DNA of 64,000 nt from Candidatus Iainarchaeum sp. GTDB taxonomy: Archaea; Iainarchaeota; Iainarchaeia; Iainarchaeales; JAXPJC01. This document shows, piece after piece, positions 1-46,119 of the stretch. Where the stretch lies: assembly GCA_016187745.1 (NCBI GenBank), contig JACPJC010000007.1, forward strand, positions 35,429 to 99,428, read 5' to 3'. The notes under the pieces are model-generated. The model ran no database searches. It saw nothing but the letters and a program-made list of their open reading frames with translations, and was not told where the DNA came from. Within the stretch, counting starts at the first letter, position 1. Every line of letters starts with the position of its first letter. The position numbers and the translations under genes were made by a program.

Positions 1-2697
1 GGGAGCGGAAGTCGCTATTATGAGGTCCTTCTCAAACACAACCCTGAAATCCGAAACCATGCGCATCTCAATCATTGCGGCATTTGACTTCTGCGTTGTA
101 AAGTAAAGCGTGCCCGAAACCTTGCTGTTCGGCGCGAAATTCCCGATGTCAAGCCACGGGAACTCATACCCATTAACTGTTCCTGAGCTTGCAATCCCCT
201 CCGAATCGTAAATTATGTAACTGTCAAATAGCAATGACTCCTCGGGATTCTTTATGCGCAGGTTCGCATTGTTGTGGATTTTTGTCTTTGAATTGTTGGT
301 AATTGTGAAGGAAAGCATATAGCGGTTGTAGATTGTTGCCTGGTAGCTCTCAAGCACAGCGCTTGCAATCTCCTCCTTCAAATCCGTAATGCTTGACTCA
401 AAGCAGAAATCATCATCGCACAGCCCCCCTGCGCCAAGCTGATAAATCTGCTGGTATGTGGTGCAGTACAAATCATATGTAGCAACTGTGCATTCCTTGT
501 CCCTTACTGTTGTTCCATCCTTTGCCCACGCCCTGTAATCAATTGTAAGCTTGTCAGTAACTGAGGCGGTGCTCTTTATGAGTATTGTTGCTTCTGCATT
601 GTAAATTCCTGCTTTCGGGCTTGCCAAAGTAGCATTGAACCATTTTGCCTCCGCGCTTGTTATGGAAGCGATATCATTCGAATAGCCGTTCCCGTAGGAA
701 GTGTACTTGAATATTGTTGCATTTGGTATGTTAATTTCCTTTATGAGCAATGAGTCCTTCTCCATTATCAATGCGCTTCCCGTCCTCACATGGATTCCCG
801 CTTCAGTGTAGCTCTTCTCCTCAGGAATGACCAGCTGGAATTTCGCAATGTACTCCTCATCGGAAGCGACGCTTGTTGCTATTTTCTCATTCTTGTAAAG
901 CCCAAGGAACCTTATGCGTGCCTCCCCGCTTATTATGGGTGCTTCCATTTCCACATTGAATGTTTGGACAGTATTTGCAATTACTGATTTTACAGCTGAA
1001 ATGTAATCCGCCTTCTCCTCCTTGCTCACTATCACATACACTTTCTTGTCTGCCTTTGTTGCAAGCCTGTAAGTTCCGTTCGCATCAGTGTAATCGCTCC
1101 CGAACAGCGAATTGTCAAGCGCATCATAAACATCAACCTTTGCAAACGCTATTGCAATTCCCTCAGCATCAGTCACATTCACATTCACAAGCCCATCGCC
1201 CATGACCATCGTGATGTCAAGGCTTATGTCCTCGGCAAGGCGCATGTCAAAGAATTTCGCTTCCGACTTCCCCGAAGCGCTTGACTTGTACGCGAACGCC
1301 TTGTAGTTCCCGTTCTGCACGCGCGTGAAGCTTGCTATTCCGTTTATGTCTGTAACCTGCTCCCCATATCCGGCAAGGAAGCCGGAATCCGCATTGTAGA
1401 GCGCGGCCCTTGCGTTCTGCACGTTTTTTCCGGATTCATTCACCACCTTCACTTTGAGCGTTCCTCCGTTGGCGCCGGTGTATTTCTCAATCTCGGCAAT
1501 GTAAGTTGCGGAGCCCGCATTTATGTTTGCGATTTTTCCAATGAGGTAATCGGGATGGTCAATGACCGCCTTGTAGGTGATTGTGGAATCAGCAACATTG
1601 AACTTGACAATTCCGTTCGCATCGGAAGCGGTAGTAAGGACTTCCACAATGTCATCATTCTCCTTCCGCAATTGCACCTGCGCGCCTGCGACAGCGCTTT
1701 TTGTTGACTTGTCAATTACCTGAATCTGCACAAACCCGGCGATGTTCTTTGAAAGATTGAAATCATAATTTACTGTTGCATTGCTTGCAAGGGAAAGAAG
1801 CCCTGACTCCAATTGCGCATAAACGTTATTGGGGTCGTAAGTTCGCAGCTTGTAGTTTCCCGCATTCAGCGCGAGAATTGCCTGCCCCGAGGAATTTGTT
1901 GTTTCAGTTCCGATTCCCAGGCCCATTTCATTGTATGCCGTTATACGAATTCCCGCAACCGGCGCGTTGAGGTAGGAAACGCCCACATTTATTGTCCCTG
2001 TTGCAACAATCAACGGCTCAAGGTAAATGGGCTGGTCGGCAAACGCATAAGAGTCGATATTCCTGTATGTGTCGCTTTTAACGCTTACATATAATTTCCC
2101 GCAGTTGCTCGGGATCTGCACATCGGCCTCGCCTGTGTATGTGGTTATGCTTCCGATTTGCGGAGCGCGCGCGTTCTCGCACGCAAATGAGAGCTCGGCC
2201 CTTCCCACAATCGGGATTCCTGCGCTCAGGAGCCTTATTTTCTTTGTTGAGAGCTCAGGCGCAACCAGCTGCAGGGTAATTGTCTTGCTCTCCGCTGCCT
2301 TTGAAATTTGGATAGTTGAAGTTGCGGTCTTGTAATTGTCCTTTTTTGCAGTAATTGCCACGCTTGCGCCAATGCTTGTTGTGAAGGATGCGTCCCCGAA
2401 ATCCTTTGTTTCCGCGGTTTTTGTAATCCCTGCATATGTTATTGTAACGCTTGCATTCGGCAATGCGCTTCCTGAATCATCAACGACCTTTACCGCAAGC
2501 GTTGCCTCCTGCGGCAGTATTACCGGGAGCAAAAAGAAATATGCCCCAAGGGCAATAAGCGCAATAAGGATTATGAAAACTATAAAGCTGGGCATTATCT
2601 TGTCTATGCGGTCAACAAGCCCTGCTATGGGTATTACGCCATCAATTTTCTCAACAAGCCTGTAATAGCCGTCTTCCAGTTTCCGGTAAATGCCCAT
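1..2697 (-). CDS. Giant membrane-anchored surface protein, paralog 1 (5' part only, >899 aa, runs off the window edge; CarboxypepD_reg/Ig-like repeats)
   Basis: Absent from the ORF track because no stop lies in the window. I translated it from ATG at 2697: MGIYRKLEDGYYRLVEKIDG...MPSFIVFIILIALIALG (TM), open to base 1. Aligns by eye with 4235..12160 (YIAKFQLVIP..EAGIHVRTG..LIMEKD, YRAWA, LCDDDFCF). Confidence 0.9.
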   Translation of the reverse strand, partial: MGIYRKLEDGYYRLVEKIDGVIPIAGLVDRIDKIMPSFIVFIILIALIALGAYFFLLPVILPQEATLAVKVVDDSGSALPNASVTITYAGITKTAETKDFGDASFTTSIGASVAITAKKDNYKTATSTIQISKAAESKTITLQLVAPELSTKKIRLLSAGIPIVGRAELSFACENARAPQIGSITTYTGEADVQIPSNCGKLYVSVKSDTYRNIDSYAFADQPIYLEPLIVATGTINVGVSYLNAPVAGIRITAYNEMGLGIGTETTNSSGQAILALNAGNYKLRTYDPNNVYAQLESGLLSLASNATVNYDFNLSKNIAGFVQIQVIDKSTKSAVAGAQVQLRKENDDIVEVLTTASDANGIVKFNVADSTITYKAVIDHPDYLIGKIANINAGSATYIAEIEKYTGANGGTLKVKVVNESGKNVQNARAALYNADSGFLAGYGEQVTDINGIASFTRVQNGNYKAFAYKSSASGKSEAKFFDMRLAEDISLDITMVMGDGLVNVNVTDAEGIAIAFAKVDVYDALDNSLFGSDYTDANGTYRLATKADKKVYVIVSKEEKADYISAVKSVIANTVQTFNVEMEAPIISGEARIRFLGLYKNEKIATSVASDEEYIAKFQLVIPEEKSYTEAGIHVRTGSALIMEKDSLLIKEINIPNATIFKYTSYGNGYSNDIASITSAEAKWFNATLASPKAGIYNAEATILIKSTASVTDKLTIDYRAWAKDGTTVRDKECTVATYDLYCTTYQQIYQLGAGGLCDDDFCFESSITDLKEEIASAVLESYQATIYNRYMLSFTITNNSKTKIHNNANLRIKNPEESLLFDSYIIYDSEGIASSGTVNGYEFPWLDIGNFAPNSKVSGTLYFTTQKSNAAMIEMRMVSDFRVVFEKDLIIATSAP

Positions 2698-2807
2698 AGT
2701 TTATCGCTTGATTAATTTATTCATTATACGCTATTAATCTTATGGCTTTCCCTGTATTTAATATTATAGTATAATGGCTGGATATATAAATAAAACCTGA
2801 TTTATTA

Positions 2808-7200: not shown

Positions 7201-10200
7201 CTTTCGGGTCCCCGAAAATATCCTCCTGCGGCAGCGCCCCTGCGGCAAGCCACAGGTCTTCAAGGACAACATTGAATGGGATGCGCTCGCGCGTCCCATA
7301 GCGGGTTATGAACTCAACGCTCATTGTTGCGCGGCTTTCCACGGTGTAGTAGCCGGCAGTAAGCGCATAGCGCAGATTCCCTATCTGCTGTATCGGGTTT
7401 GTGGATGTGAGATTTGCGCCTCCTCCCCTGTACTGCACGTCCTTTATTATTTCAAACTGCAGTATTTCCCTTGTATGGTCCCCTGCGCCTTCAGTGTAGA
7501 TCGCAGTAACGCTTACTTCCTTTGCAAGCCTCAATTGCTCCGGAGCGGGCGTTTTTCCCGGCTCGGCGCTTATCGGAGGGGTTGTATACATTGAGCCCTC
7601 GCTTATTTTTATTGAATCGGCACTGTAAATGAGCCTTACCCCTGAATCATAGCAATCATTGAATACTTTCCCGGAAACGGGCTTTCCAATGAAGCTATTG
7701 AACTTGAATTTCTTCTTGTCAAGCTGGACGCAATCAAACCATGTCTTTGTGAATATGTTGCTCACACTGACCATTAGCGTTGTTATTGTCGTGCTTGCAT
7801 CCTTTGAATCCTTTACGCGCGCTTTCACATCAATCGGATAGTTCCCTACCATGTAAGCCGCCTGCACCTCGCTCTCAAGCTCCTCTCCCGCGGAAAGCGC
7901 AGTTGTTGCCTTATCAACAATGAGCGCAGGGTCTGAGGAAAGCGAAATTTCAACAGCGCTTGAGCAGTTATTGCGCACCGTAAAGGAAGTTTTGCCGCAG
8001 TTGAAGCTTGAGCCATAAGCGCCAATGCCGCCGCCAATTCCGCCATAGCCGCCTGTTCCATAATCGCTTCCGTAGAACGGCTGCTGGTAATTTGAAGAGG
8101 GATAATTGTTTGCATAAAGTTGATCGTAATTTCCAAGCCAGGGCTGCTGGTTCGGTGTGTAGCCCCACTGCTGATAGGGATTATAATTTGCTCCGGAAAA
8201 GCCGCCCATGCCGCTGAATCCAGGCCCGCCGCCACTGCCTCCAAAGCCACCGCCAAATCCAAAGTTTCCATAATTTCCATAGCCCATATTGTACGGGCAG
8301 CTTTCAATTGCAAGCGCAGCGCTCTGTATTACTTCCACGCACTCCTGGAGGTCATTTACCTTTGCATTAACTTTCAGCTGCGTTGAAATTTCCTCATCCC
8401 CGCGCGTGGTTTTGTTTATTGCCTTGAAAATTATATTGTAAGTGGCTTCGCCGCTTGTAACGTCCTCAGGCTCAAATTCTAATTTGATGGTTGCGCTTGC
8501 CCCTGCCTCAATTAAGGGCGCAATTTCAGCATATGTGTTTGTAAGCGAAACATCGCTTGAATCCTCAATGTCAGAGGAAATTTCAAATGTGCCCAAAGCG
8601 TTGTCATTCGCCTGCGTCATTTTTACGGAGAGCTCGCGCAATACTATTCCCTCGCCTCCAACCTCGCAGTTGTTCTGCAGGGCAATGCTCAGCGTCTTGC
8701 TCCCTGTTGATGCGAACAAATCCCATGTGCCCGGGTTTATTGTGAGGCATGAGGAATCATCCGCTTCCGCCCCGAAGCCGATTGTAATATTTACAGGAAC
8801 AGAAATGCGCCATGTTGCGCTCGCATCAGTGCTTTCAAGGCTTATGTCTATGCTTGCGGAAAGCTTTGTTATCTCATCAACGCGCTTCCCCTCATCAGTC
8901 AGGTCAAGTATTATCCCTATATTGAAATCCTCCCCTTTCGGAAGGGCACTGTCCTCGTATGTGTCAGCGAAAGTTATTGTTGCAAGCCCGTCCAAATCGC
9001 CGGAAGCGCTTATTGAGGAAATCATCAGCGGGAGTTCGGTTATGTTGTTGAGGAGCAGTTCCACATCCTTTCTATCCGAACCGGCAATTGTAAGGGTCTC
9101 ATTTATTTTTTCAGGGCTTATTTCAAGTATGTCCTCGCTCACGCCCATTGAAAGCGAATTCTGCTTGTAGTTGGATTTTTCCGCGCGGAATTCAAGGGAA
9201 GTTCCCGAACTTACCGAAGCAAGGGCATATGCGAATATTCCATTGAAATCAGTTGTTCCTGAAGCTAGCGTTGTTCCGTTCTTGAGTATTGTTACAACAG
9301 CATCAGCAAGCGCGCTCCCATCATTGGAATCAGTTACCCTTATGAGCAAATTATTCTGCACAAATGGAACAATAATTTTCGGCAGCACTTCAACGCTCAG
9401 CGCTTTTGCGCCGGCAATATTTATGGAGATTGATTTCTGCATCACCTTCTCATTCCCTGAAATGAGCTCCATTCTCAGCAAAGTGCTTCCCTCCTTTGCG
9501 GTCCTGAAGCCGAGGTTGCCATAGAACTTGCTGTTTGTTGCGGCATCCCCCACATCAATTTCAAGCGAGGCCCCCGTAAGCGTTCCGGGTATTTTAGCCC
9601 CTGTAACGGTCGTAATCTCATATCCCGAAAACCCAAGGCTGCCTGTCTCATTGTAAATTTTGAGTTTGGAACTTGCGAATGTTGTTGAAGCTTTGCTTGT
9701 TATTGTGAATATGAGCTTGTAGTCATTTGAAACCTTCGCGGAATAGGAATCCACGATCGAGGTCTGCAGGTTCCCGGAAGCAATGTCCTCAATTATCAGG
9801 CGGTAGCAGAAAACATCATCGCACAAATTGCTCGGCCCTATTGACAATGGCAGTGAATTCGTCTGCGCATAGAGCGCCTGCTTGCTTCCAGAACTTTCGC
9901 TGCTCCCTAGCGTTGAGTCCGTCGGGAATCTCACATATGCGCCCTTCTTCCCCCAGCCCCTGTACTGCAGTTCAGTAAGGGTTCCGATTGCAATTCCATC
10001 TTTTACAATTATTTCGGCTTCCGCATCGTAAATCCCGTCAGAGGCGTTCTTCCACACGATGTTTGACCATTTCGCATTTCCTGTTGTGAGATGCAATGCA
10101 TCAGTCGCATAATTGTTCGGGGGCGTGTAGGAAGAGCCCTTTGTCATTCCCGAAGTTGAGGCGTAAATATTGCGCAGGTATATGGGATCCTTTTCCATTA

Positions 10201-13589: not shown

Positions 13590-15227
13590 CTATTCAGGAT
13601 AGCAGCCCCCCGGGCCAATAGCTGGCTCGGCCGTTATATCCGTCCTTGAATAGCAAGTCCATTCGCTTAAATCAACTGCTGCAAGTTCTTCCGGTGCATT
13701 AGAAAGCGCGCACGTTGGGGGAGCCGCATTAGCGCTCTTGAATTTTGCTGAGAAAGGGGTGTATGCATAATCCGCAAGCCTTATCCTGAATTCCGCGCCC
13801 ATTGCCTTATTGACCTTGTAGTGCTCATTGTTCTCCCTGAAGCGCAGCTGCATTTCAACCGCGCTCACTTCGCTGCAGTAGGAAGTGCTTCCAGGATTTG
13901 CAGGAATCCCGCTGTCCCCCCCGCCGGTTTCAGGCCCCCTTGCAATTACCTTCCCGTCGGACAGATAAAAGCCGGTTCCCCCGCGCATAGCAGAGCACGG
14001 GGAATATGAATGTCCTGAATCCCCAGAACCCTCGCTTCCGCCATCATCCTGTATTATTATTTTTGAAGGCCTTGCCTGTGTAGTGGCTGAAAACAGCTCT
14101 GCAATGTCGCATGCGCTTGCTCCGCTTCCAACAAGCTCCAGCCCATCCCACTGCCTTTCAGCGCCGATAGAATTTTTTGCAATCCCGCATATCCTTTCCT
14201 GCGCAAGCGCCTTCAGTGCGTCATTTGCGGCCTCTCCAATGCCCGAGGCATCATATGCATCAGGGTTCTGCATCAGATTGCTAATGCCCGCGCTTCTTGA
14301 CCAGCTGCCCGGGGAAAATTCGACCCTGTAATCCCCGCCCCTGTTGTCCCCCGGGCAATATTTGTCTGTATCTCCGATTGCCGAATTCGCAGAATCATAG
14401 GGGTCCTCCCTCGGAGCGCAGCTCTTTGCATCGCACATCCCGAGGCGCATTTCCTCAATCTCATTATGGACCCCCGCGGAAAACAGCCCGCCATCATTTG
14501 CAGCAAATGCAATGCTCCTTGCAATTGCAATCGCCTTGAACAATCTCAAGGGGACGAAAATCCTGAATTTTCCCTTGGGAAGGACTGGCTCCTTTATTCT
14601 CCTTCCCGTGTTCTCATTGAAAACAAGAATCTGGGGAAGCATCTCGTAATCCGGCTCTTCCAGCGACTTTATGTCAAGCACAACATAGAAGGTTCCGGGG
14701 TTGCATTCATCAGGATTGCCATCAGGGCAGCCCACAACCTGTAAAAATTCACTCGCCCCCACGCTATTGTCAATCGCCTTCTGCAAAGCGCCAACCATCT
14801 CAACCTCTGAACCGACAATCACAACATTATAGCTGCCGAAGCTTTTGCCTGTCGTGCCGGTGCCAAGAAGGCTTGAGATTACCTTTGCCGTGTATCTGGC
14901 AAACGCGCCCCCGCCGCTGAATTTTGAACTTGCAAAATCATTCTGCAGCTCCTGCCATGTCCTCGCTTCCGGGCCAAGGATGTAATAATTGCCGGGCTCA
15001 AGGAGATAATCGCTTATCTGCCAGCGCATATTGTAATTGAAGACCTGCATCGCATCAGCCCTGCTCAGGTCCGCAATCGCCTGCATTTCCGCCTGCTCCT
15101 CAATGCTCCTTATTATGTCAACGGTATTCCTTTCGGTCTGCATCATGTTCTGCGCAAGGAGGAGCGCAAGCACTATAAGCACGAACGAAACAAGCGCAGT
15201 GAATAAGTTGAATGCCCTTTCGCGCAT
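13590..15227 (-). CDS. Large prepilin-like secreted protein (545 aa, Cys-rich)
   Basis: MRERA/FNLFTALVSFVLIVLALLL resembles a class III signal peptide; long helix, then a Cys-rich globular region. Confidence 0.75.
   Translation of the reverse strand: MRERAFNLFTALVSFVLIVLALLLAQNMMQTERNTVDIIRSIEEQAEMQAIADLSRADAMQVFNYNMRWQISDYLLEPGNYYILGPEARTWQELQNDFASSKFSGGGAFARYTAKVISSLLGTGTTGKSFGSYNVVIVGSEVEMVGALQKAIDNSVGASEFLQVVGCPDGNPDECNPGTFYVVLDIKSLEEPDYEMLPQILVFNENTGRRIKEPVLPKGKFRIFVPLRLFKAIAIARSIAFAANDGGLFSAGVHNEIEEMRLGMCDAKSCAPREDPYDSANSAIGDTDKYCPGDNRGGDYRVEFSPGSWSRSAGISNLMQNPDAYDASGIGEAANDALKALAQERICGIAKNSIGAERQWDGLELVGSGASACDIAELFSATTQARPSKIIIQDDGGSEGSGDSGHSYSPCSAMRGGTGFYLSDGKVIARGPETGGGDSGIPANPGSTSYCSEVSAVEMQLRFRENNEHYKVNKAMGAEFRIRLADYAYTPFSAKFKSANAAPPTCALSNAPEELAAVDLSEWTCYSRTDITAEPAIGPGGCYPE
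13592..13607. repeat. 16-bp direct repeat copy 2 (ATTCAGGATAGCAGCC)
   Basis: Identical to 12275..12290; encodes GCYPE at the 3' end of the 545-aa gene. Confidence 0.85.
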
Positions 15228-15295: not shown

Positions 15296-15574
15296 CTACT
15301 TATATGCGTCATCATGATGTTTGAATTTGTCAAAAAGAATATATCCTTCTTTCTTGGAAACCTTAAATAGAAGAACAAAACTCTTGGCTATATGCGCACG
15401 CTTGTAATCAGCCAGACTATGGCGAAGATTTTTGTAATGTTCTATGGTCCGTTCATCAGAGCTGATTATCTGCTTGATTTTCTTATTTAATATTCCAAGA
15501 GTTTTTTTGTCCTTCTTTTCAAGTATCCTGATTGTCGCCTTTAGTTCATCTGACAGGTCAAATGAAAAAGTCAT
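15296..15574 (-). CDS. RelE/ParE-family toxin
   Basis: 92 aa, basic; HYKNLRHSLADYKRAHI..SFVLLF and C-terminal HHDDAYK; abuts the upstream antitoxin gene. Confidence 0.85.
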   Translation of the reverse strand: MTFSFDLSDELKATIRILEKKDKKTLGILNKKIKQIISSDERTIEHYKNLRHSLADYKRAHIAKSFVLLFKVSKKEGYILFDKFKHHDDAYK

Positions 15575-15853
15575 TCATTCGCCCCTGCATAGCCTGTCAA
15601 GCTCTTCAACACTCATGCTTCTGAATCCATATTTTTTAATATGCCTATCGCAGGATTCAATTACTTCCCTTACAACTTCATCCTTTACTTCCTTGTCAAT
15701 GAATTCATCAACAAAATCACCCCCGTACAGCTCCGCAAACTTGTCCAGCGCCTCGGATTTGTCGCGCAGGCCGTATTTTTCCTTAATTACCCCAAGCACC
15801 CTGTTGGTATAATCCTTGGCCCTCAGGTTCATGGTTACGGTTCTTCCTCTCAT
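15575..15853 (-). CDS. Antitoxin (DUF2683-like, RHH-type N-terminus)
   Basis: YTNRVLGVIKEKYGLRDKSEAL motif, acidic C-terminal half; stop directly precedes the toxin ATG. Confidence 0.8.
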   Translation of the reverse strand: MRGRTVTMNLRAKDYTNRVLGVIKEKYGLRDKSEALDKFAELYGGDFVDEFIDKEVKDEVVREVIESCDRHIKKYGFRSMSVEELDRLCRGE

Positions 15854-24787: not shown

Positions 24788-24845
24788 TGTGCAATTGGCA
24801 GCTGTATCAAATCTGCACAAAGCATCAAACTGGCATTTTGTTTAT

Positions 24846-25583: not shown

Positions 25584-25606
25584 ATATAGTTTAGCACCTT
25601 TAATAT

Positions 25607-25631: not shown

Positions 25632-25652
25632 CCTCTTTTTATCTGGGCAAAA

Positions 25653-30726: not shown

Positions 30727-30771
30727 AAACATTTATATATGAGTTTTGCATTATTTAATCGGTGGTTTAAG

Positions 30772-31308
30772 GTGATTAATCAGAAAGGCCAGGCATTTGA
30801 TGTTTTTAAACTGCTTATTGCCGCGGTTATTGCAATAGCAATACTCTCGCTCCTGATGCCGATCATAGGGACAATAACCGGCATATTCACAAAAGACCCC
30901 ACAGTTGAGGCAAGAACGCTTTTGTCAGATTTATACAACAAAACGATTACCTGGAAAGAAACCCCGGGAGTGACTTTCAGCACTTCTAATCCCACAATGG
31001 CAGTAGCAGCGCTTATTGAAGGCACCAACCTGAGTTCGGATCAGGTCTGCCTGAGCCTTGGCGATTTCTCAGACAGCACGACAGAATGGGAAATAACAGG
31101 AACTGCCGGACTCAGAAAAATTGAGCACAAATTATCAACAAGCAGGCTTGTGAAGATCGGCGTGGAATGCGCCCGTGATGGAGAAGACCCTGCCCAAATT
31201 GCATTAGAGAGCGAGCTTAATAATAAAATAAGCGGCGCAGAACTTGAGTGCGATGACTCTGGCTGCCCAGGCCCGACCTGTTGCATGGTTGTATTGAGAA
31301 GGACATAA
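30772..31308 (+). CDS. Pilin, candidate major subunit
   Basis: NQKG/QAFDVFKLLIAAVIAIAIL. GTG start after GGTGG SD; own TATA-like aaaacatttatata at about 30726-30739; T-rich tract after the stop. Confidence 0.85.
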   Translation: MINQKGQAFDVFKLLIAAVIAIAILSLLMPIIGTITGIFTKDPTVEARTLLSDLYNKTITWKETPGVTFSTSNPTMAVAALIEGTNLSSDQVCLSLGDFSDSTTEWEITGTAGLRKIEHKLSTSRLVKIGVECARDGEDPAQIALESELNNKISGAELECDDSGCPGPTCCMVVLRRT

Positions 31309-31367: not shown

Positions 31368-31526
31368 ATGCGCATAACTGATTTCCTAAGGGATGAAAAA
31401 GCCCAGAGCGAGTTCAGCTCCCTTTACATGCTAATAGTGCTGGTTATTGCGGCGCTTCTCATAATTACGCTTGTAAAGCCGATGTTCCGGCAGAGCCAGA
31501 AGATTGTAAGCAAAACCGTGAAATAG
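31368..31526 (+). CDS. Very small pilin-like protein (52 aa)
   Basis: MRITDFLRDEKA/QSEFSSLYMLIVLVIAALLII; TATA-like tttatata about 25-30 nt upstream. Confidence 0.75.
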   Translation: MRITDFLRDEKAQSEFSSLYMLIVLVIAALLIITLVKPMFRQSQKIVSKTVK

Positions 31527-31529: not shown

Positions 31530-32078
31530 GTGCCTAATATGCCAAAATTCAACCAGAAGGGCCAGGAAGAGGCTCCCTTTGAGCTGCTTGTCGCAGTCAT
31601 AATAATGGGCTTCGTGCTTTTTGTGGGCATGCAGGCCATGGCGCAGCTTCAACTGAACGAATGCACGGGAAGGACTGAAAAAACCCTTGAGAGCATGAAA
31701 ACAGTAATTGAGACAGTCGCAACGGAACGGGGAAAACAGAATATCAATTTCAGGCTGCCGGGCTGCTTCAAGGAAGAAAAGCAGAAATTATTTGTAAAGC
31801 AGATTTCCGACAAGCAGAGCTGCATGTATTTCTGCAAGCAGATTGCGGAGAGATGCACTGTGCTTTATTATGATGCGGAGGAAATCGCGCCGATAGTGAA
31901 GTGCCTCTCAATATCCTATCTTACAACCTTCCCGAGCGAAGGCACGCTGTGCAATGCAATTGACGATTATGCGCTGCAGGATTTCTACAATGACATTCCG
32001 CAGGGGAATTACATACTCATAAGCAGGCCAAACCCCACAACGCAAGTCCCAACAGTATGCGCATACCGCCATGATTAG
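31530..32078 (+). CDS. Pilin-like protein with class III signal peptide
   Basis: NQKG/QEEAPFELLVAVIIMGFVL; 8 Cys. Confidence 0.85.
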   Translation: MPNMPKFNQKGQEEAPFELLVAVIIMGFVLFVGMQAMAQLQLNECTGRTEKTLESMKTVIETVATERGKQNINFRLPGCFKEEKQKLFVKQISDKQSCMYFCKQIAERCTVLYYDAEEIAPIVKCLSISYLTTFPSEGTLCNAIDDYALQDFYNDIPQGNYILISRPNPTTQVPTVCAYRHD

Positions 32079-32090: not shown

Positions 32091-32711
32091 ATGTTAGGGT
32101 TTACATTAAGCAAACTGAATTTGCTTTTATTGGCGATTGCCGCAAGCGCAACTGTCGCGTATTTCATGGTAATTTACATTGACGCTTCCGAGGCACAGGC
32201 TGCGCAGCAGCTGGCGCAGAAACTCGCGCAGGACGCGGCATCGCTGGTGAATTCATCAACCTACTGCGATTACCTCGAATTTTCACTGCCGCGCTCCTTT
32301 TCAGTAGGGGGGAAGGAATTCTACTACAAGCTGAAGATTTCAGGCCTTGAGGCGCAATCAGAAACCAGCAATCCAAAAAACTATCTTATTTTTTCAGTAA
32401 TAAGGAAGCGCGAGGGCAGGGAAAGCATTGCTGCGACAAGCTCTGTTGTTGCTTCCGCGGAAATAAATGTGTTCAGGTTCGGGGATGAAACAACGCTCGA
32501 GCCTGAACTGGTGGGATTGGAAGAAGGCGCAATCCTCGACCCGCAGGAAATCCCAAGGCAGAACATAGTCATGCTTGTGAAGGAAATAATTGATGGCGCG
32601 CCATACATTTATGCAATTCCCTGCAGCTCTGACAGCGATGCGAGCTCATGCCCGGCAAACAAGAGCAGCGCGGCAGTTCTGCTCGACCGCCCGGAGGGAT
32701 TCAATTGCTAG
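32091..32711 (+). CDS. Minor pilin-like protein (N-terminal hydrophobic helix, no basic leader)
   Basis: MLGFTLSKLNLLLLAIAA, then amphipathic helix and beta domain; inside the pilin operon. Confidence 0.75.
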   Translation: MLGFTLSKLNLLLLAIAASATVAYFMVIYIDASEAQAAQQLAQKLAQDAASLVNSSTYCDYLEFSLPRSFSVGGKEFYYKLKISGLEAQSETSNPKNYLIFSVIRKREGRESIAATSSVVASAEINVFRFGDETTLEPELVGLEEGAILDPQEIPRQNIVMLVKEIIDGAPYIYAIPCSSDSDASSCPANKSSAAVLLDRPEGFNC

Positions 32712-33268
32712 AAAAGAAACGCAAGGGGTTTTTGGGCCCCATAGGCGATGACCTTCCGAGTCTGGTCCCCCTGGTTTTTGCGCTGATAATTTTCTTCTCC
32801 ACTTTCACTTATGCGATGAATTCCATGGACTCGAGGAACGAGGATTTTGATGCGGATCTGGCAACGCTGGGCATTGCAAGGATAATGCGGAGCAACGGCT
32901 ACATTACAGGATATGAGGATTTCAGGCGCCTTTGCGGCAACATCAATGTTTCAGGCCTGAATTACGAAGTTGCGCTTGTTGAAACAGAGCTCACATACGA
33001 TGAAAGCAATTATGCAGGTTATGAAGACCAAAGATTTTCAGGGGTTGATATTCTTGATTTGCGCATATTTGATTCAACCCCGAATATAAAGGATGATGAA
33101 GAGGACAGGAAAGCAAGCGAGTTCTTCTGCAGCAATATTCCCATTTCCGAACTGCCGGAGCTTATTGAAATTGGGCAGAGGCTCAGCTCAAGGGTATTCC
33201 CAATAGTTCTTGAGGATGCGAAGATAGCGAAGCCGATGTTCCTGGTTGTGATAACATGGAGGCCATAA
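32705..33268 (+). CDS. Minor pilin-like protein
   Basis: TTG start at 32705 after GGAGGG; KRKG/FLGPIGDDLPSLVPLVFALIIFF. Confidence 0.75.
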   Translation: MLEKKRKGFLGPIGDDLPSLVPLVFALIIFFSTFTYAMNSMDSRNEDFDADLATLGIARIMRSNGYITGYEDFRRLCGNINVSGLNYEVALVETELTYDESNYAGYEDQRFSGVDILDLRIFDSTPNIKDDEEDRKASEFFCSNIPISELPELIEIGQRLSSRVFPIVLEDAKIAKPMFLVVITWRP

Positions 33269-33269: not shown

Positions 33270-34061
33270 TTGCGGAAACTAAATAGCAAGGGCCAGGCGG
33301 CAATTACTGATGCGCTGTTTTTCCTGCTGATAGTTTCAGCGCTTGCAACACTGCTCTTTCTCTTCATAAACCAGTACGGGATAATGGTTTCCGATGAGGT
33401 AAAGCGCTCTTATGGGACGGATTATGCGTCTTCTGCATTGAAAACAATCCTATATGGCAGCGTTCCGAGGAATGCCGGTGAAAAGCTTGCGGATGCGGAA
33501 ACCCAGGAGATTGATTATCTGCTTGCCGCAATAAAGGAGGATTATGCCTATGCGAAGGATGACGGGAAGCAAAGGCTCAGCCCTGAAATGCAGAAAACCC
33601 TCCATAGCAATATTTCCGCAATAATGAAGCCGCTTTCAGAGCAGTTTGACTATTTGTTTTATGTTTACAGGATCGATTCCCCAAGCGATGCGGATGAGTT
33701 TGCCTATCTGCTGCTGCACATAAGCGGGTGCAAAGCGGAAATCAGCTCCTCCGAGTTCTGCCCAGAGGGCGAAGGAATCCATGCGGATTACCTCTGCAAT
33801 CCCAAAACGCTTTCCGGGCAGTCCGCAGTTTCCTCAACCCTTGATGCGCTTACAATGCTGATTCCGAATTCCGCGCAGTCTGTAAGCAGCATTCTCCTCT
33901 CAAAAGTTGCAGATTCCGCAAGCAGCCCGAAAACAGTCCCTGCGCGCGCTGCAATTATGCTCTGGCCTGCGGTTTATCTCAAGCAGAACGAAACAGGGGA
34001 TTTCGCCTCAGCGCCCTGGAACTGCTGCGACGCCTCAAAAACATACTGCCCTGCAGGCTAG
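33270..34061 (+). CDS. Minor pilin-like protein
   Basis: NSKG/QAAITDALFFLLIVSAL; Cys-rich C-terminus. Confidence 0.82.
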   Translation: MRKLNSKGQAAITDALFFLLIVSALATLLFLFINQYGIMVSDEVKRSYGTDYASSALKTILYGSVPRNAGEKLADAETQEIDYLLAAIKEDYAYAKDDGKQRLSPEMQKTLHSNISAIMKPLSEQFDYLFYVYRIDSPSDADEFAYLLLHISGCKAEISSSEFCPEGEGIHADYLCNPKTLSGQSAVSSTLDALTMLIPNSAQSVSSILLSKVADSASSPKTVPARAAIMLWPAVYLKQNETGDFASAPWNCCDASKTYCPAG

Positions 34062-34993
34062 CGCATTTGGACCTTGAATTCTTTATTGCACTTTGGGCAT
34101 TTATACACAACAATGTCATCATAGGGCTTTACGCTTTTTGCGCAGTGCGCGCAGAAAGCCGAATTGCAGTTCGGGCAGAAGATTATTTCCGGGCTCTTGT
34201 TCCCGCAGTTCGGGCATACGTTCTTGTCGGTTTCAATTTCCTTTGTTATGCTTTCCGGGCCGCCCGCAATTTTTTTTAGCTGCTCCTCCAGGCTTTCCTC
34301 ATTTTTCTTTTCTCCCTTCTCGGATTCCGGCTCCTCGGACATCTGCTCAATCAATTCAGGATGCTCCTCGCTTTCAATCCCGAAAAGCTCAGAAACGCTA
34401 AGCTTCTTTTTTTCCGCTGTTTCAGGGATAGAAAATTCCCCCTCAGCAACATCCTTTTTCCCCTCCCCTGCCCTTTCCCTTGCGCGCTTTTTTCTGGCTC
34501 CGGGTTTTTCAGCCGGGAATTTTGATTTTACCTCCTCAAAAACATTTTCTGAAAGCTTTTCCTCCTCCTTCTCTGTTGGGAGCCTTCTGTGCCTTTCTCG
34601 GAAGCGCCTGACCTCGCTTATTGCTGCATGCGCTGTTTCTTCCTTTGCAACTTCCTCAGGAATTTCCCTGGAAGCGCGGTAAATCTCCTCTGCAGCCTCC
34701 CTTTCGGGCTTTTCAGCCTTCCTTCTGCGGAATTTTTCCGCTGCCCTTTCAGGTTCCTTAACCTTCTCTTCCTCGTAAAGCGTTTCTATCAGTTCCTCCT
34801 CTTCCTTCCTTCCAATCTCCTTGAGCAGCTGCTCCATTTCCCTTGTGGGCCTTATGGGCTCTTCCTTCCTCGGAATTTCCTTTTTCTCTGCTGTTTTTTC
34901 AGCAGGCCCCGGCCTTGCTTCTGCCTTTTCAGCCTGCCCCCTGTAGAAGCGCCTCATCCTCCGGGGAACTTCCTCGTTTTCCTCAGTGCTCAT
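34058..34993 (-). CDS. Glu/Lys/Arg-rich protein with C-terminal double zinc ribbon
   Basis: Low-complexity charged body; CPNC, CPNC, CAHC, CPKC. Confidence 0.8.
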   Translation of the reverse strand: MSTEENEEVPRRMRRFYRGQAEKAEARPGPAEKTAEKKEIPRKEEPIRPTREMEQLLKEIGRKEEEELIETLYEEEKVKEPERAAEKFRRRKAEKPEREAAEEIYRASREIPEEVAKEETAHAAISEVRRFRERHRRLPTEKEEEKLSENVFEEVKSKFPAEKPGARKKRARERAGEGKKDVAEGEFSIPETAEKKKLSVSELFGIESEEHPELIEQMSEEPESEKGEKKNEESLEEQLKKIAGGPESITKEIETDKNVCPNCGNKSPEIIFCPNCNSAFCAHCAKSVKPYDDIVVYKCPKCNKEFKVQMR

Positions 34994-35388
34994 TTCCTTC
35001 CCTTCTTCCTTTTTTTATTTTTCAGTTTTCTGAAGGCGCGCTTCGCAACAGCGCCCGCGCTTATGTAATCGAGAGGCACAACAACCTTTAATTTTTTCCT
35101 CGGCTTGATTTTCCTGTAAACATTGAGCGCGAGGAATGAGGCAAAAAATGCAAACGCAAGCAGGTAAAGGAAGGTCTTTTCAAACGGCATGGAAATTGCG
35201 GTTTCCAGAAGCAGGCCTGCTGCAATCACAAGCGCTCCGAAGGAAACTCCCGCAAGCACCGAATATGCGAGCTTTGCCCTTTCCCTCAGCGCCCTCACCG
35301 CAGGCCAGGAGGCGCGGAGCATGAGATAGCCTATGCTTGCCGCTCCGGAGAGTATGTAAAGCGCAAGCAGCAATCCGTCAGCATTCAT
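34990..35388 (-). CDS. Small membrane protein (3 TM, basic tail)
   Basis: Three hydrophobic helices; 4-nt ATGA overlap with the downstream gene. Confidence 0.75.
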   Translation of the reverse strand: MNADGLLLALYILSGAASIGYLMLRASWPAVRALRERAKLAYSVLAGVSFGALVIAAGLLLETAISMPFEKTFLYLLAFAFFASFLALNVYRKIKPRKKLKVVVPLDYISAGAVAKRAFRKLKNKKRKKGRK

Positions 35389-35471: not shown

Positions 35472-36020
35472 GTGCATGGGATGGTGCTGGATCTGCTTTC
35501 AAATATTGCCTTTTCAACAACTAGTTTCCTCTGGCTCGGCTTCATTTCATCAATCCCTGTGTTCGCGCTTGTGCTGATCGCATGGCTTGCCAATAAAATA
35601 ATATCGAAGCCCAGGAAAAAATACTCATGGCTTGCAAGATGCTTTGCGCTTTCCTATATAATAATCCTCTGCATTGTTGCCTTCGCATATTTCGCTCCGT
35701 TGATTTCTGCAGGACAGCAGGCTGCAGCCATTGGAAGCGAGCCGGGGGATGTTGCGCAGGATTTCCTGACAGAAACCCTGCCCGAATGGGCCTTCTATAT
35801 TGTCAGGGCATTTGCAATAGCGTTTGCGCTTGCATTGCTCATAATGCCGTTGGCATTGGTCGGGGAATTTGCAAATGAGGCAATAGGAAAGAAATTCAGG
35901 CCGCATAAGGCGCTCTGCGCATATGCTGCAACGCTCCTTGCGACATTTGCTGCAGTTGCCGTTATAATGCTTTTCCCAGGCATTCCCGCGGGGATAATTT
36001 ACCTGGTTTATTTCGCTTAA
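35472..36020 (+). CDS. Membrane protein (4-5 TM)
   Basis: Hydrophobic helices throughout; start may be ATG 35481. Confidence 0.75.
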   Translation: MHGMVLDLLSNIAFSTTSFLWLGFISSIPVFALVLIAWLANKIISKPRKKYSWLARCFALSYIIILCIVAFAYFAPLISAGQQAAAIGSEPGDVAQDFLTETLPEWAFYIVRAFAIAFALALLIMPLALVGEFANEAIGKKFRPHKALCAYAATLLATFAAVAVIMLFPGIPAGIIYLVYFA

Positions 36021-42737: not shown

Positions 42738-43652
42738 TTACAGCACCTGCGCAATCATGTAGACTGCGAAGCTCAGCGGCATCATGATGCACGCGTAAAT
42801 AACAGCCTTCTTGATGTTGTTTTCCATGTTCGCTATGAAGAAGCTTGCGAGGAGCGCATATTCCGCAATATACAGCTGGTTTGCAAGCATTGCCGCACTG
42901 AGAAGCGCCCTTCTCTCCATTGCACCCATTCCTATCTGCAGGAAGTCCGCCTGCACAAAATCAAGCTTTATGACCAGCCCCACAAGCAGCCCAAGCACTA
43001 AAGGGACTATAATGCCTCCGGCAAGAATCAGGGTATATTTTTCAATGGTCATTGTGGCTATGCGCTCCCTTATTATCCCGCGCGTTTCCAGCATGTCCTC
43101 CGCAGCTTCCCTGAATATTTTTGACATTTTTGCGCCGGAATTATATCCCTGTATTATCAGCTCCAGTGCGCGGGAGAGTGTTTTTGACTTGTTCCTGAAG
43201 GACATGTTCTTGAGCGCGGTTTCAACGCTTGCGCCCTTTCTTATTTCCGCCAGCGCCTTTCTGAATTCCCCGGAAAGCGCGCCGTAATCCGCATTTGAGA
43301 GATACTCAATTATTTTTATTGCTTCAGCGCTTTCGGGGAAAATGCTTGCCTGCAGCAGGAGGTCAGGAACCGCGCCTTCAATGGAGCGCCTGCGCATTTC
43401 AAACTTATATAGCAGCAGGAAATATCTGCCGAATGCAAAGAGGAGCGCGGATGCAAGCGCTGCGGAAAGGGCATAAAAGGCGCTCTGGGAGAGATAGAAT
43501 GCAAGCGCAGAGGCGAATGCGGAAAGCGCAATCGCGCACACCAGGATTCCCCTGAGGAATTCCCCCGCATTCCCTTTTGCATTTGTCTGCCTCAGCATAA
43601 GCCCAATTTTATCCGGGAAATTCCCGCCCGGCAATGCGCCCTTCCCTTTCAT
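42738..43652 (-). CDS. Type II secretion F / TadC-like membrane protein
   Basis: IEGAVPDLLL, YGALSGEF..EIRKGASVETAL, followed by TM helices. Confidence 0.9.
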   Translation of the reverse strand: MKGKGALPGGNFPDKIGLMLRQTNAKGNAGEFLRGILVCAIALSAFASALAFYLSQSAFYALSAALASALLFAFGRYFLLLYKFEMRRRSIEGAVPDLLLQASIFPESAEAIKIIEYLSNADYGALSGEFRKALAEIRKGASVETALKNMSFRNKSKTLSRALELIIQGYNSGAKMSKIFREAAEDMLETRGIIRERIATMTIEKYTLILAGGIIVPLVLGLLVGLVIKLDFVQADFLQIGMGAMERRALLSAAMLANQLYIAEYALLASFFIANMENNIKKAVIYACIMMPLSFAVYMIAQVL

Positions 43653-44405
43653 TCAGTTCCCCTTCAGGAATTCTGGCGTCCTTGCCCTTATGTAAAGCAA
43701 AACAGCAAAATCAAGCGCAGGAAACAGCAGCGCAACTATCAATAGTATTTGCAGCGCGCTCAGCTCCAATGCAAGGAAGGCGCTCCCCACGATTATGAAT
43801 GCCTGGAAAAGCGCCGGCACAATGGCGGAAACAGCAATGAACATCAGTGAAAAAACAACAAGCTTGTTGCTGAACTCCTTAGATTCGGAATGCTGCCTGA
43901 GGAGCATTTCATGAGCAAGCCTTTTCAGCGGGGAGGAACTTCTCTTCCCAGAGCCCTGCTCATATGCCGCAACAATCTGGGTTATTGCCCTCTTCACATC
44001 AAGCGAATTTGCCCTTTCCGAAAAGCCGAACAGCGCTTCCTGCACGGAAGAGCCGGAATCCCTTATTTCAGAGACGATTTTCCTGAATTCCATTGACACA
44101 AGGCCGTAATCCTGCCCTGCGATGTTCCCAAGCGCTGTTTCGAACTGCACATCCATTTCAGTTTCTACCGCAAGGGAAAGAAGGGCAAAAGGCATATCCT
44201 TCTCAATCAGCAGTGCGTATTTCCTTTTTTTTAGCTTCGGGTAATATTGCAGTGCGGAATAAGCAAGCGCAAAAACAAGGATTGCGGGAACTAGCGAAAG
44301 CGCAATCTCCTCAAGCAGGAGCGCTGAGGCAAACCATGCGCACAGCGCTGCAATTGCGGAATGCCTGAAATTCCTATCCTGAAGAATTTTTCCATTGTTT
44401 CTCAT
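43653..44405 (-). CDS. Type II secretion F / TadB-like membrane protein
   Basis: IEKDMPFALL, YGLVSMEF..GSSVQEAL, followed by TM helices. Confidence 0.9.
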   Translation of the reverse strand: MRNNGKILQDRNFRHSAIAALCAWFASALLLEEIALSLVPAILVFALAYSALQYYPKLKKRKYALLIEKDMPFALLSLAVETEMDVQFETALGNIAGQDYGLVSMEFRKIVSEIRDSGSSVQEALFGFSERANSLDVKRAITQIVAAYEQGSGKRSSSPLKRLAHEMLLRQHSESKEFSNKLVVFSLMFIAVSAIVPALFQAFIIVGSAFLALELSALQILLIVALLFPALDFAVLLYIRARTPEFLKGN

Positions 44406-46119
44406 TGCGTTTCATCTCCATGGTGAAATCGGAATTGCTGAACCCATGGCATTTCATTATTTTTCCCAGAACTCTTGCGCTTTTGTTCCTTGCAACCAGG
44501 CGGCCTTTTTTGTAGTCATATTCATAAAGAACATTCAGACCTGCCGAATTCCCCTTCCCCTGCACTTCCGCAATCTCGGTTATGCGCCTTATCTCCCTGT
44601 GCCCTGAATTTTTTCCGATTACGTTCCAGCGCCTCTGCACCAGAACCAAATCTATTGAGCAAAGGTCAATATCATCAATGCCAAGGCTTTTCAGCCTTAT
44701 AAGCGCCTCATTTGCTGACTGCGCATGGAAGGTTGCATAGCTCCCCTTCCCCTGCCCTGCAAGAAGCGTGTCAATAAACGCCTTTGCCTCCTCGGAATTC
44801 CTTATTTCCCCCACTATTACCCTATCAGGGCGCATGCGCAATGTGTCAACAATCAGCTCCGGCATCCTTATCTGCAGGCCATCAGCAACATTCAGCCTGA
44901 CAACATGCCTGTGCCGCAGATTTATTTCAGGCGTTTCCTCAGTCACTATTATGCGCTCGCTCTCCGGGATGAAATTGAAAAGCGCGTTCAATGTAGATGT
45001 TTTTCCGGAGCCCGTATTGCCGCATATCAGCATGGAACAATCAGTCTGCAATGCAAACTGGAGGAAGGCAAGCGCATTTGCGGAAATTGTTCCAGTATCA
45101 AGCAAATCCTTCGGGGTAAATGGAACTTCCCGGAATTTCCTTATTGTAAGGCTTGGCCCCGAAACTGAAACAGGGGAAATTGTGGCGCATATCCTCTCCC
45201 CGGAAGGAAGCGCGGCATTCAGCTTGGGGGTCTGCATGCTGAGGCGCCTTCCAATTGCACGCGACATCCTGTTCACGAGGTTCTTTAGCGTTGTTTCGTC
45301 GCAGAAATAGAAATTCGTCCTCAGCCAGCCCAATTTCCTCTCATAAACATAAACCGGCTTGTTTTTTCCCAGCCCAATAACCGCAATCTCCTCAAGGTTT
45401 CCATTGCCCAGCAGTTCAGAAATTGCCCCAAATCCGAATACAAGCAGTTCCAGAATCTTCAGCAAATAATTATGCTGCGCTCCCTCAAGCTCAAGGAAAT
45501 TCCTATGGCAATAGCGCCTCAGGCTTTCCTCAAGCGCGCGCGGCTCTGCCTCCTCATTTTTCTCCTGGAATTCAGAAAGCACAGAGCTGAGAAGCAGCGC
45601 CTCCTGCCTTGTAAGCTCGGGGATTCCTTGAATGCAGTAAATAAGCCCTTCCGTTGTTTCAATTATCTCATAATTCGCGCCATGTGCAATGGATTTTCTT
45701 TTATCCGCATCTGCAATTTTATATATGCGCCAGCCCAGGATTTTCTCAATTTCATCAATTTCAGACTCTGATTTGCACATCTTCAATGCCCTTTTACCGC
45801 ATGCGGAAATGCAGGGCATTTTGAAATCATTCAGGGCGCACAGGTCGCACTTAACGGCCTTTCCATCAACAACAGAAATCGCGCCGTAGTTGCAGGCATC
45901 CGCGCATGCGCCGCAGCCGTTGCATTTGCCCCCTGCATCAACAGCCAATATCCCCTGTGAAACCTCATATATTGCGTTTCTCCTGCAGGCAAGAAGGCAT
46001 TTTGCCTTCTCAGGGGCGCAATGCCTGCATTTTAGGAGCGCAATCCCGCTCAATTTGTGCCTGCAAACAGCCAGGCATTTCCCGCAGGAATCGCACGCAT
46101 CAGAAACAACAAGCTCCAA
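44374..46119 (-). CDS. TadA/VirB11-like pilus ATPase with N-terminal 4x[4Fe-4S]-type ferredoxin domain
   Basis: Four 4-Cys groups in the first ~110 aa; Walker A GNTGSGKT, EETPEI, LRMRPDRVIVGEIR, ATFHA. Confidence 0.92.
   Translation of the reverse strand: MELVVSDACDSCGKCLAVCRHKLSGIALLKCRHCAPEKAKCLLACRRNAIYEVSQGILAVDAGGKCNGCGACADACNYGAISVVDGKAVKCDLCALNDFKMPCISACGKRALKMCKSESEIDEIEKILGWRIYKIADADKRKSIAHGANYEIIETTEGLIYCIQGIPELTRQEALLLSSVLSEFQEKNEEAEPRALEESLRRYCHRNFLELEGAQHNYLLKILELLVFGFGAISELLGNGNLEEIAVIGLGKNKPVYVYERKLGWLRTNFYFCDETTLKNLVNRMSRAIGRRLSMQTPKLNAALPSGERICATISPVSVSGPSLTIRKFREVPFTPKDLLDTGTISANALAFLQFALQTDCSMLICGNTGSGKTSTLNALFNFIPESERIIVTEETPEINLRHRHVVRLNVADGLQIRMPELIVDTLRMRPDRVIVGEIRNSEEAKAFIDTLLAGQGKGSYATFHAQSANEALIRLKSLGIDDIDLCSIDLVLVQRRWNVIGKNSGHREIRRITEIAEVQGKGNSAGLNVLYEYDYKKGRLVARNKSARVLGKIMKCHGFSNSDFTMEMKRNEKQWKNSSG

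Follow-up and report, generated by a model that had tools for sequence, protein, structure and literature searches.

Do the genes that an archaeal genome keeps beside a type IV filament motor, an archaeosortase-like enzyme and giant surface proteins build one structure, and what would such a structure do? The question is raised by a locus in the window analyzed here, a stretch of 64,000 nt from contig JACPJC010000007.1 (assembly GCA_016187745.1) of an archaeon of the DPANN phylum Iainarchaeota (Diapherotrites). The DPANN archaea are regarded as dependent on cell-to-cell contact for their way of life. In an earlier note on the sequence, the genes on both sides of a divergent point at 24.8–25.6 kb, which splits a left arm (minus strand) from a right arm (plus strand), had been proposed to build one apparatus, similar to a type II secretion system (T2SS), that attaches to or breaches another cell. 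The results presented below indicate that the cluster is real, conserved and built from known kinds of parts. The reading that we favor, with about an even chance of being right, is that of a lineage-wide Iainarchaeota cell-surface cluster of three co-inherited modules, which most likely provides a contact surface for binding and, in some lineages, cutting into other cells or polymers. These modules would be (i) a Tad/Epd-like type IV filament machine, assembling a filament or a short pseudopilus, (ii) a small archaeosortase that would cleave the C-terminal LPSLPE-CTERM signal of a 1501-aa protein (p1501) and re-anchor this protein at the cell surface, and (iii) an N-anchored giant protein, whose Ig-like stalk would hold an exchangeable tip far from the cell. 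Gene content, gene order, the catalytic signature of the sortase, the sorting signal, the anchor motif of the giants and the variability of their tips are observed, whereas the processing of the pilins, the assembly of a filament, the pairing of sortase and substrate, a physical coupling of the modules and the contact function are what we infer. The T2SS-like character and the attachment to or breaching of another cell that the note proposed would be further conjectures.

From the window, 45 open reading frames (ORFs) were scanned against Pfam, and its genes were analyzed by NCBIfam comparison, hydropathy profiling and all-against-all BLAST. A scan of one genome per species for homologs of the assembly ATPase of the locus yielded 208 relatives, from which 80 loci were retained and their ORFs labeled by BLAST and hidden Markov model (HMM) searches; 22 loci in which about 10 kb is present on both sides are referred to as full-flank loci. 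Among 840 scored relatives of the ATPase, the best 120 were 64–98% identical, and the names found among these 120 were those of Candidatus Diapherotrites, Iainarchaeum and Micrarchaeota metagenome-assembled genomes (MAGs), with the Diapherotrites and Iainarchaeum names at 64–79% identity. The guess at DPANN made in the earlier note was right. The retained loci include those of Ca. Iainarchaeum andersonii (L030) and of the complete genome GW2011_AR10 (L031). Three archaeal locus contigs (L003, L004 and L007) are filed in Chloroflexota, Chloroflexi and Falkowbacteria bins, probably as a result of binning errors.

Comparison of the 80 loci revealed a canonical gene order (names as in Table 1): p545, giant and sortase on one strand; ATPase, platform, pil1, pil2, pilS, pil3, pil4, pil5 and pil6 on the other strand; and, distally, Znr and tm132 in reversed orientation, followed by tm182 and p1501. 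In the full-flank loci, homologs were detected for the sortase (21/22), the platform and pil1 (20/22 each), the giant, pilS and pil3 (16/22 each), pil4, pil5 and pil6 (15/22 each), pil2 (14/22) and Znr (11/22); the counts for p1501 (9/22), tm182 (8/22), tm132 (6/22) and p545 (5/22) are limited by the 10-kb reach. The sortase was found in 56 of the 68 loci with at least 1 kb of upstream sequence, and an ortholog of the conserved giant of the window (G3) in 26 of the 34 whose upstream flank is complete. In 55 of 58 loci the sortase and the ATPase are neighbors in divergent orientation (median gap of 952 nt), the giant adjoins the sortase in 28 of 39, and tm182 adjoins p1501, in the same direction, in all nine loci that contain both. 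Downstream of the giant, p545 follows in five of the six loci whose sequence extends about 400 nt or more past the giant (the exception is L072). Znr and tm132, identified by HMM in 27 and 13 loci, respectively, form a conserved pair. Since the same gene order recurs across related genomes, most of the cluster is co-inherited; the synteny of the core genes (sortase, platform, giant and pilins 3–6), which the note had named as a check on its proposal, was borne out. Judged from these comparisons, the arrangement exceeds chance. In addition, the pairwise distances between ATPases are correlated with those between sortases (r = 0.80; 57 loci), giant N-termini (r = 0.93; 33 loci) and platform proteins (r = 0.90; 59 loci), and 0 of 999 permutations reached the observed values. 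As far as sequence distances can tell, these correlations signify co-inheritance and nothing beyond that.

A different reading, to which we assign a tentative and lesser probability, regards the locus as an island of independent modules, i.e. an ordinary adhesive type IV pilus operon, an unrelated pair of sortase and substrate, and a giant adhesin of S-layer-like type. Vertical inheritance, and perhaps a common regulation of envelope genes, would have kept them side by side. Each module is complete by itself, and in the rearranged loci L015, L043, L059, L063, L066, L077 and L080 the modules are shuffled with their sub-modules intact. Variable genes enter the sortase-ATPase spacer, which in other genomes contains unrelated genes of about 350 aa that are not related to the spacer ORF of the window. 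In one subclade (L044, L047 and L060), the platform and the pilins are not adjacent to the ATPase. This same subclade, however, keeps the giant-sortase-ATPase trio although the remaining pilus genes have been relocated, which argues against full independence of the modules. Moreover, the sortase sits beside the ATPase and the giant, about 10 kb from its presumed substrate p1501, an odd arrangement for an independent pair, and the pilin-like p545 is located with the giant, outside the pilin operon.

The favored reading begins with the filament module, which would consist of a GspE2/TadA-type ATPase with a zinc-finger-like N-terminal domain, a T2SSF-type platform, pilS, six larger pilins and p545. 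The ATPase matches the Pfam family T2SSE (E = 5e-18) and, in the alignment of its orthologs, the residues GSRGSGKTS (Walker A) and EDT are invariant. Its N-terminal extension of about 290 aa contains the nearly invariant residues C26, C29, C41 and H44, forming a C-x2-C...C-x2-H motif, and the pilus ATPase clade with this zinc-finger-like domain stays linked to the sortase and the giant. Its closest relatives in PDB are, in this order, 2OAP (GspE2 of A. fulgidus), CpaF and FlaI. Of the NCBIfam models, TadA was matched below its cutoff, and the scores against the GspE models were far below theirs. The platform protein of the window scored 24.8 bits against T2SSF, slightly under the cutoff of 25.2, and 27 of 30 of its orthologs matched this family at E≤0.01. 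The earlier note had singled out the platform as fused; since the archaeal platform is commonly a single two-domain polypeptide, there is nothing special in this arrangement. Among the best 120 ATPase relatives, nine contain intein/LAGLIDADG domains (PF14528, PF14890) and have a length of about 1,270 aa.

The ATPase, the platform and seven pilin-like ORFs form a tight operon that extends to position 34061, with gaps or overlaps of only a few bases. Together with p545, the seven pilin-like genes constitute eight orthologous families, each with its own conserved class III-like N-terminus. The shortest and best conserved of these is pilS; cleavage after K-A/G would give a mature product of about 40 aa, as in Flp-type pilins. 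In the favored reading, pilS is probably a very short major pilin and the six larger proteins would be minor pilins. p545 starts with [KR][GA]-F-[TN]-LFTAL and a hydrophobic helix, an N-terminus that is kept in five orthologs, and it had no match in Pfam, NCBIfam or PDB. When the window was scanned with a class III pattern, such N-termini were confined to genes of the locus, and the giants G2 and G3 were picked up as well. Of the components of a type IV filament system, an ATPase and a platform are thus present in the locus, and an A24 prepilin peptidase was not found in the window or the flank ORFs scanned. No secretin or GspC/L/M-type families were matched in the window with Pfam or NCBIfam.

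This module resembles Epd-type, Tad and Flp filaments in that (i) the nearest structural relatives of its ATPase are 2OAP and CpaF, (ii) the platform is of the T2SSF type and (iii) one very short pilin-like protein is accompanied by several larger ones. It differs from them in the ~290-aa N-terminal domain of the ATPase with its C-x2-C...C-x2-H motif, in pilins without a Pfam pilin match, in the lack of an A24 peptidase gene nearby and in the constant linkage with a sortase and a giant. Insertions of mobile-element genes into the operon were observed in two loci: an ORF with a Cas12f1-like TNB domain (TnpB-like) follows the platform gene inside the pilus operon of L024 (14768–16009, plus strand), and a DDE transposase together with a C-5 methylase is inserted inside that of L067 (19043–20299, plus strand). 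In L060 (12342–14544, minus strand), the ATPase is immediately followed by three tandem genes of ~230 aa that encode collagen triple-helix repeats.

An archaellum motility organelle or a DNA-uptake pilus could be considered, as FlaI is the NCBIfam model that the ATPase matches with the best E-value. The match reaches 147.6 bits, however, far below the FlaI cutoff of 550, and neither Pfam nor NCBIfam gave a match to an archaellin, ArlH, ArlF/G or ArlCDE family in the window, in agreement with the note, which had reported neither archaellin or ArlH genes nor a prepilin peptidase there. No DNA-binding or competence family was seen either, and we regard both functions as highly improbable.

The second module of the favored reading is centered on the sortase. 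Its score against the exosortase/archaeosortase signature TIGR04178 was 32.3 bits (cutoff of 23), and all 12 orthologs sampled from 58 also exceeded the cutoff (30.4–45.4 bits). All 59 sequences compared share residues C127, G129, E132, N166, R169 and H189; the Cys, Arg and His are those that we take to be the catalytic residues of the exosortase family. The protein is about 180–215 aa long, its true start probably being a later Met than that of the 215-aa ORF. None of the 13 sortases scanned passed the cutoff of a named subfamily (ArtA-H, XrtX, XrtH, XrtG, pacearchaeosortase or heimdallarchaeosortase); the best subfamily scores were 53.3 bits for XrtX (cutoff of 170) and 51.3 bits for XrtH (cutoff of 86).

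The presumed substrate, p1501, belongs to a family of 65 members, all annotated as hypothetical, free of Pfam domains and derived from MAGs labeled Diapherotrites or Micrarchaeota, including AR10, and it matched no Pfam or NCBIfam family. Its C-terminus contains the motif (F/L)NLPSLPE, then a hydrophobic helix and, last, a basic tail. The recognized layout of exosortase and archaeosortase substrates is just such a C-terminal series of motif, transmembrane (TM) helix and basic tail. A regular expression search found [LIVMF][PS]S[LIVM]P within the last 75 residues of 60 of the 65 members, and exact LPSLP in 54. Because this tripartite signal is kept in 60 of 65 relatives, p1501 is likely the dedicated substrate of the sortase, a prediction that we consider strong. 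Apart from members of the p1501 family (5 of 5 complete ends), no real carrier of the signal was found in either the window or the 80 loci. None of these five C-termini matched an NCBIfam sorting-signal model at E≤1. The subsequent re-anchoring of p1501 would follow by analogy with archaeosortase A.

Like the archaeosortase A/PGF-CTERM and exosortase/PEP-CTERM systems, the pair comprises a polytopic signature protein with invariant Cys, Arg and His and a substrate whose extreme C-terminus has the tripartite layout. Unlike the named archaeosortases and exosortases, the enzyme is only ~180–215 aa long and falls below all subfamily cutoffs, the motif is LPSLPE and there is one apparent target in the neighborhood. 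On the basis of these profile comparisons, the small archaeosortase subfamily and the LPSLPE-CTERM sorting signal are new. An AlphaFold2 model of p1501 residues 1–1200, built from 60 sequences, had a predicted local distance difference test score (pLDDT) of 78.5 and a predicted template modeling score of 0.64. Foldseek searches with this model gave no match to the fold, either in PDB (best E = 0.31) or in BFVD (best E = 0.14), and no usable match was obtained in the ESM Atlas.

The third module is the giant. The earlier note had described three homologous giants in the window (G1, G2 and G3), and this holds for their N-terminal 900–1200 aa (BLAST identity of 32% over 923 aa for G1/G2 and 23.5% over 1224 aa for G3/G2); the remainders are not homologous. 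From the comparison of loci, this genome has G1 and G2 as additional paralogs, outside the conserved cluster. The N-terminus of the giants contains the motif Y.K.EDxYY..LDFL..KGIPVY.Y.DFLE.KGIP.FP followed by a TM helix, in which Y11, E15, G29, G43 and P45 are invariant. The conserved leader is ~45 aa long and contains a duplicated KGIP motif; an invariant Gly, mostly preceded by Lys or Arg, stands directly before the hydrophobic helix (KG-IP.FP), and is lacking in the paralog G1. A profile of this anchor motif retrieved 1,103 representatives from a library of 1.84 billion proteins, 546 of them at E≤1e-10, always within residues 1–100. Among 150 listed of these 1,103 proteins, 97 have a length of 1,500 aa or more, and 81 reach 2,300 aa. 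The motif therefore defines a family of more than 1,000 proteins, with giants among those listed.

Beyond the anchor, the giants contain CarboxypepD_reg, Big_1 and macroglobulin-like (Ig-like) repeats (Pfam). In G3 these are followed by a Cys-rich conserved region to about residue 2050, a helical stretch and a ~200-aa tip domain. Ortholog coverage falls after about residue 2050, the border being marked by a conserved hydrophobic stretch and the motif DCG(I/V)P. BLAST clustering of 92 giants placed the first 250 aa in a single cluster, residues 1500–1750 in six and the last 250 aa in 17, so the tip is the variable part; the 17 tip clusters comprise 42, 18, 11 and three members, five pairs and eight singletons, and the G2 tip belongs to the cluster of 11. 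An AlphaFold2 model of G3 residues 1520–2708 (pLDDT of 69) was confident for the first 480 residues and low at the tip, and a Foldseek search with it gave weak beta-sandwich matches to BcsB, complement and alpha-2-macroglobulin (E = 3e-4 to 1e-2). In G2, residues 1291–1385 (8006–8290, minus strand) form a 95-residue low-complexity stretch with 30 G, 13 Y and 10 N.

Some of the tips were identified. The giant of L024 ends with an SLT domain (E = 2.3e-10), P0254 with NlpC/P60, Amidase_3 and Glucosaminidase domains, and P0227 with a Glucosaminidase domain; P0290 has a CAP domain as its tip. In the first three of these relatives the tip is, by its domains, a murein hydrolase, and cutting may occur in some lineages; such tips hint at action on bacteria by some members. 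AR10, which has no giant within 10 kb, encodes upstream of the sortase a protein of 1016 aa in which Amidase_3 (E = 8e-34) and PKD domains were recognized (L031, 3529–6579, minus strand).

The G3 tip looked SLT-like by eye, but it has Lys at the position of the catalytic Glu, and this identity, which failed every formal test, is at most a tentative lead. A language-model search gave SLT clusters with a score of only 0.78, BLAST against the SLT tip of L024 gave E = 0.16, phmmer against PDB returned nothing relevant, and a profile of 15 giants found no match among PDB sequences. The relatives of the G3 tip among long proteins were itself and one protein at 61% identity. A polymorphic toxin or contact-dependent inhibition system does not fit, as three tip classes hold 71 of the 92 giants and the place downstream, where a variable immunity gene would be expected, is taken by the conserved p545.

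Several observations weigh against the contact-surface reading. A giant homolog is absent within 10 kb in 6 of the 22 full-flank loci, which also speaks for an island of independent modules, and linkage with correlated distances is expected for any vertically inherited block in small genomes and is no proof of shared function. Of 42 giants scanned, only 3 end with a wall hydrolase, and no such tip is recognizable in the giants of the window. The G3 tip falls into the largest class (42 of 92) and is unrecognized by Pfam, which detected SLT in 0 of 13 proteins at E≤0.1 (11 of 13 SPR giants matching the tip, the window tip and the SLT match P0241). As to the filament, the pilin-like proteins matched no Pfam pilin family even at E≤1, so that the designation "pilin" refers to their N-terminal motifs and gene context, and Peptidase_A24 (PibD/FlaK/EppA) was not found in the 45 window ORFs scanned or in 78 unlabeled flank ORFs of the 22 loci; a prepilin peptidase may be encoded elsewhere in the genome. 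We know of no culture of this Iainarchaeota lineage and of no host or partner. Part of one publication suggests that the lineage of Ca. Iainarchaeum andersonii is possibly independent or free-living (PMC6349945).

Another explanation, close to the idea of the earlier note, is a bindosome- or T2SS-like device in which the type IV machinery, instead of building a long pilus, would insert, lift or display p545 and perhaps the giants on a short pseudopilus. The Sulfolobus bindosome consists of a type IV pilus-like ATPase, a platform and pilin-like proteins that serve surface proteins with class III signals, and thus provides a precedent. A conserved pilin-type N-terminus in p545, the invariant Gly before the helix of the giants, the selection of G2 and G3 together with the pilins by the class III scan and the seven distinct pilin-like families, as with pseudopilins, would all fit such a device. 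On the other hand, the conserved leader of ~45 aa, the duplicated KGIP and the lack of the Gly in G1 fit a cytoplasmic tail better than a cleaved leader, and no peptidase was found in the window or the flank ORFs. Unlike in the bindosome, the ATPase scored only 72.7 bits against BasE (cutoff of 1000), BasC was also far under its cutoff, and the cargo would be p545 or giants instead of sugar-binding proteins. We therefore consider this device unlikely.

In a bolder version, p545 and the giants would be prepilin-like cargo. Cleavage would occur at the invariant Gly of KG-IP.FP, and the machine would mount them on a short filament as a tip-armed, 2,700-residue "harpoon", with the sortase-anchored p1501, whose confidently predicted fold has no known analog, acting on the membrane of the partner. 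This is suggested by that Gly, which precedes the helix, and by the pilin-type N-terminus that p545 shows, and is weakened by the long conserved leader and the peptidase that was not found; its probability appears to us quite small. If true, a DPANN cell-contact organelle would for the first time have genes assigned to it.

Under the contact-surface reading, which we retain, the cluster is a concrete phylum-wide candidate gene set for a contact surface, and several published systems can be set beside it. Castelle et al. 2021 describe, in the passages concerned with fam00969, proteins that reach 3,000 aa in Pacearchaeota and Woesearchaeota and contain domains of murein lytic transglycosylases (PMC8204110), and murein-lytic giants in three DPANN MAGs are mentioned in part of a study of an oxygen-deficient zone (PMC10936187). 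As in fam00969, the Iainarchaeota giants are extracellular DPANN proteins, some of them with SLT, amidase, glucosaminidase or NlpC/P60 tips. They differ in that lytic tips occur in 3 of 42 giants and none is recognizable in the window, the comparison with fam00969 being one of descriptions; the fam00969 passages (PMC8204110) contain no mention of an N-terminal anchor motif or of a link with a pilus ATPase or sortase.

An attachment organelle of Nanobdellota, with a filament reaching the other cell, was visualized by cryo-electron tomography by Johnson et al. 2024, who, in the relevant part of the paper, call its proteins unknown (PMC11420986). That organelle belongs to a different phylum and its genes are unassigned, whereas the Iainarchaeota cluster is known from genes alone; a link between the two is a possibility. 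According to part of the survey of Makarova et al. 2019 (PMC6393860), some DPANN type IV pilus loci have unrecognizable pilins, and in the 2016 census of archaeal type IV pili (PMC4858521) the words "archaeosortase" and "DPANN" are absent. The literature searched yielded no characterized archaeal pilus clade with these accessory genes, and no publication describing the cluster, the sortase or the sorting signal was found; the arCOG tables of PMC6393860 and PMC4858521 may list the locus type.

The genetic organization of the region is summarized in Table 1. All genes named in the earlier note were located by means of ORF, Pfam and NCBIfam analysis. Its right arm of ATPase, platform and seven pilin-like genes, followed by p1501, stood, with the addition of Znr, tm132 and tm182 between the pilins and p1501.

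Table 1. Features of the window, with their positions in nt from its first letter.
Feature	Position	Strand	Basis or remarks
G1, giant paralog	1–2697	-	N-terminal 899 aa inside the window; gene leaves the window edge
155-aa membrane protein	between G1 and G2	-	ORF map
G2, giant paralog, 2641 aa	4235–12160	-	same N-terminal anchor and Ig-like array; C-terminal half differs
AAA_14/DUF4143 ATPase, 403 aa	12277–13488	-	Pfam
p545, 545 aa, pilin-like N-terminus	13590–15227	-	conserved N-terminal motif
two back-to-back 92-aa ORFs	15296–15853	-	gap between G3 and p545
G3, conserved giant, 2708 aa	15934–24060	-	Pfam, orthologs, anchor motif
sortase ("Art"), exosortase/archaeosortase-family protein, 215-aa ORF	24147–24794	-	TIGR04178
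spacer ORF	24846–25715		between sortase and ATPase
type IV filament assembly ATPase, 762 aa	25653–27941	+	T2SSE
platform protein, 773 aa, nine hydrophobic segments	27948–30269	+	divergent T2SSF/TadC/FlaJ type
pil1	30262–30726	+	pilin-like, N-terminus KGQAF
pil2	30739–31308	+	pilin-like, N-terminus KGQAF
pilS	31368–31526	+	pilin-like, ~52-aa precursor, N-terminus [KR][AG]QSEW
pil3	31530–32078	+	pilin-like, N-terminus KGQE.APFELL
pil4	32091–32711	+	pilin-like, N-terminus MLGF.LSK
pil5	32648–33268	+	pilin-like, N-terminus KGF.GPIGDDLPSL; start probably later
pil6	33270–34061	+	pilin-like, N-terminus KGQAA.TDA
Znr, 311 aa, E/K-rich, cytoplasmic, C-terminal zinc ribbons	34058–34993	-	Pfam, hydropathy
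tm132, three-TM protein	34990–35388	-	hydropathy
tm182, four-TM protein	35472–36020	+	directly upstream of p1501
p1501, 1501 aa, signal peptide and C-terminal TM helix	36054–40559	+	hydropathy
197-aa ORF, PAC2 proteasome chaperone, PIN gene	between p1501 and second ATPase set		Pfam
second set: two T2SSF genes (TadB-like, TadC-like)	42738–44405		Pfam
second ATPase	44374–46119	-	Pfam, PDB relatives
p1424, 1424-aa surface protein	46383–50657		precedes second ATPase set

The second TadA/B/C set, which the earlier note had included in the apparatus, is near the locus in only one of the 22 full-flank loci (L008). This locus shares the order of the window, with a p1424-like surface protein, an ATPase, and TadB-like and TadC-like proteins. 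Given this distribution, the second ATPase set, with its own large surface protein (p1424), is considered a separate system. The N-terminal domain of the second ATPase contains four Cys clusters (two of them C-x2-C-x2-C-x3-C), to which ferredoxin-type Pfam families gave weak matches below the cutoffs, and its PDB relatives follow the same order as those of the first ATPase. Both ATPases score far under the FlaI, TadA and BasE cutoffs. The class III pattern scan of the window detected no pilin-like ORF adjacent to this set.

The 403-aa gene encodes an AAA_14/DUF4143 ATPase and does not belong to the cluster; its homolog recurs only in L037, between the giant and the sortase. The gap between G3 and p545 is 706 nt in the window, compared to 16–47 nt in five other genomes. 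The layout of the two 92-aa ORFs located in it is similar to that of a toxin-antitoxin pair, but they matched no such family and this assignment was rejected. The spacer ORF had no homolog in the 80 loci and no family match. A TatC-like identity of tm182 was also dismissed, as a weak match in 1 of 18 orthologs is attributable to chance. Scanning of the divergent region for promoters and terminators gave fewer sites than in shuffled sequences, with a bacterial consensus that is unsuited to archaea.

The remainder of the window contains housekeeping genes, encoding UPP synthase, a geranylgeranyl reductase-like protein, CorA and tRNA-Gln. A 458-aa membrane protein in which a GIDE-like domain is joined to a LemA domain is encoded at positions 50786–52162 (minus strand).

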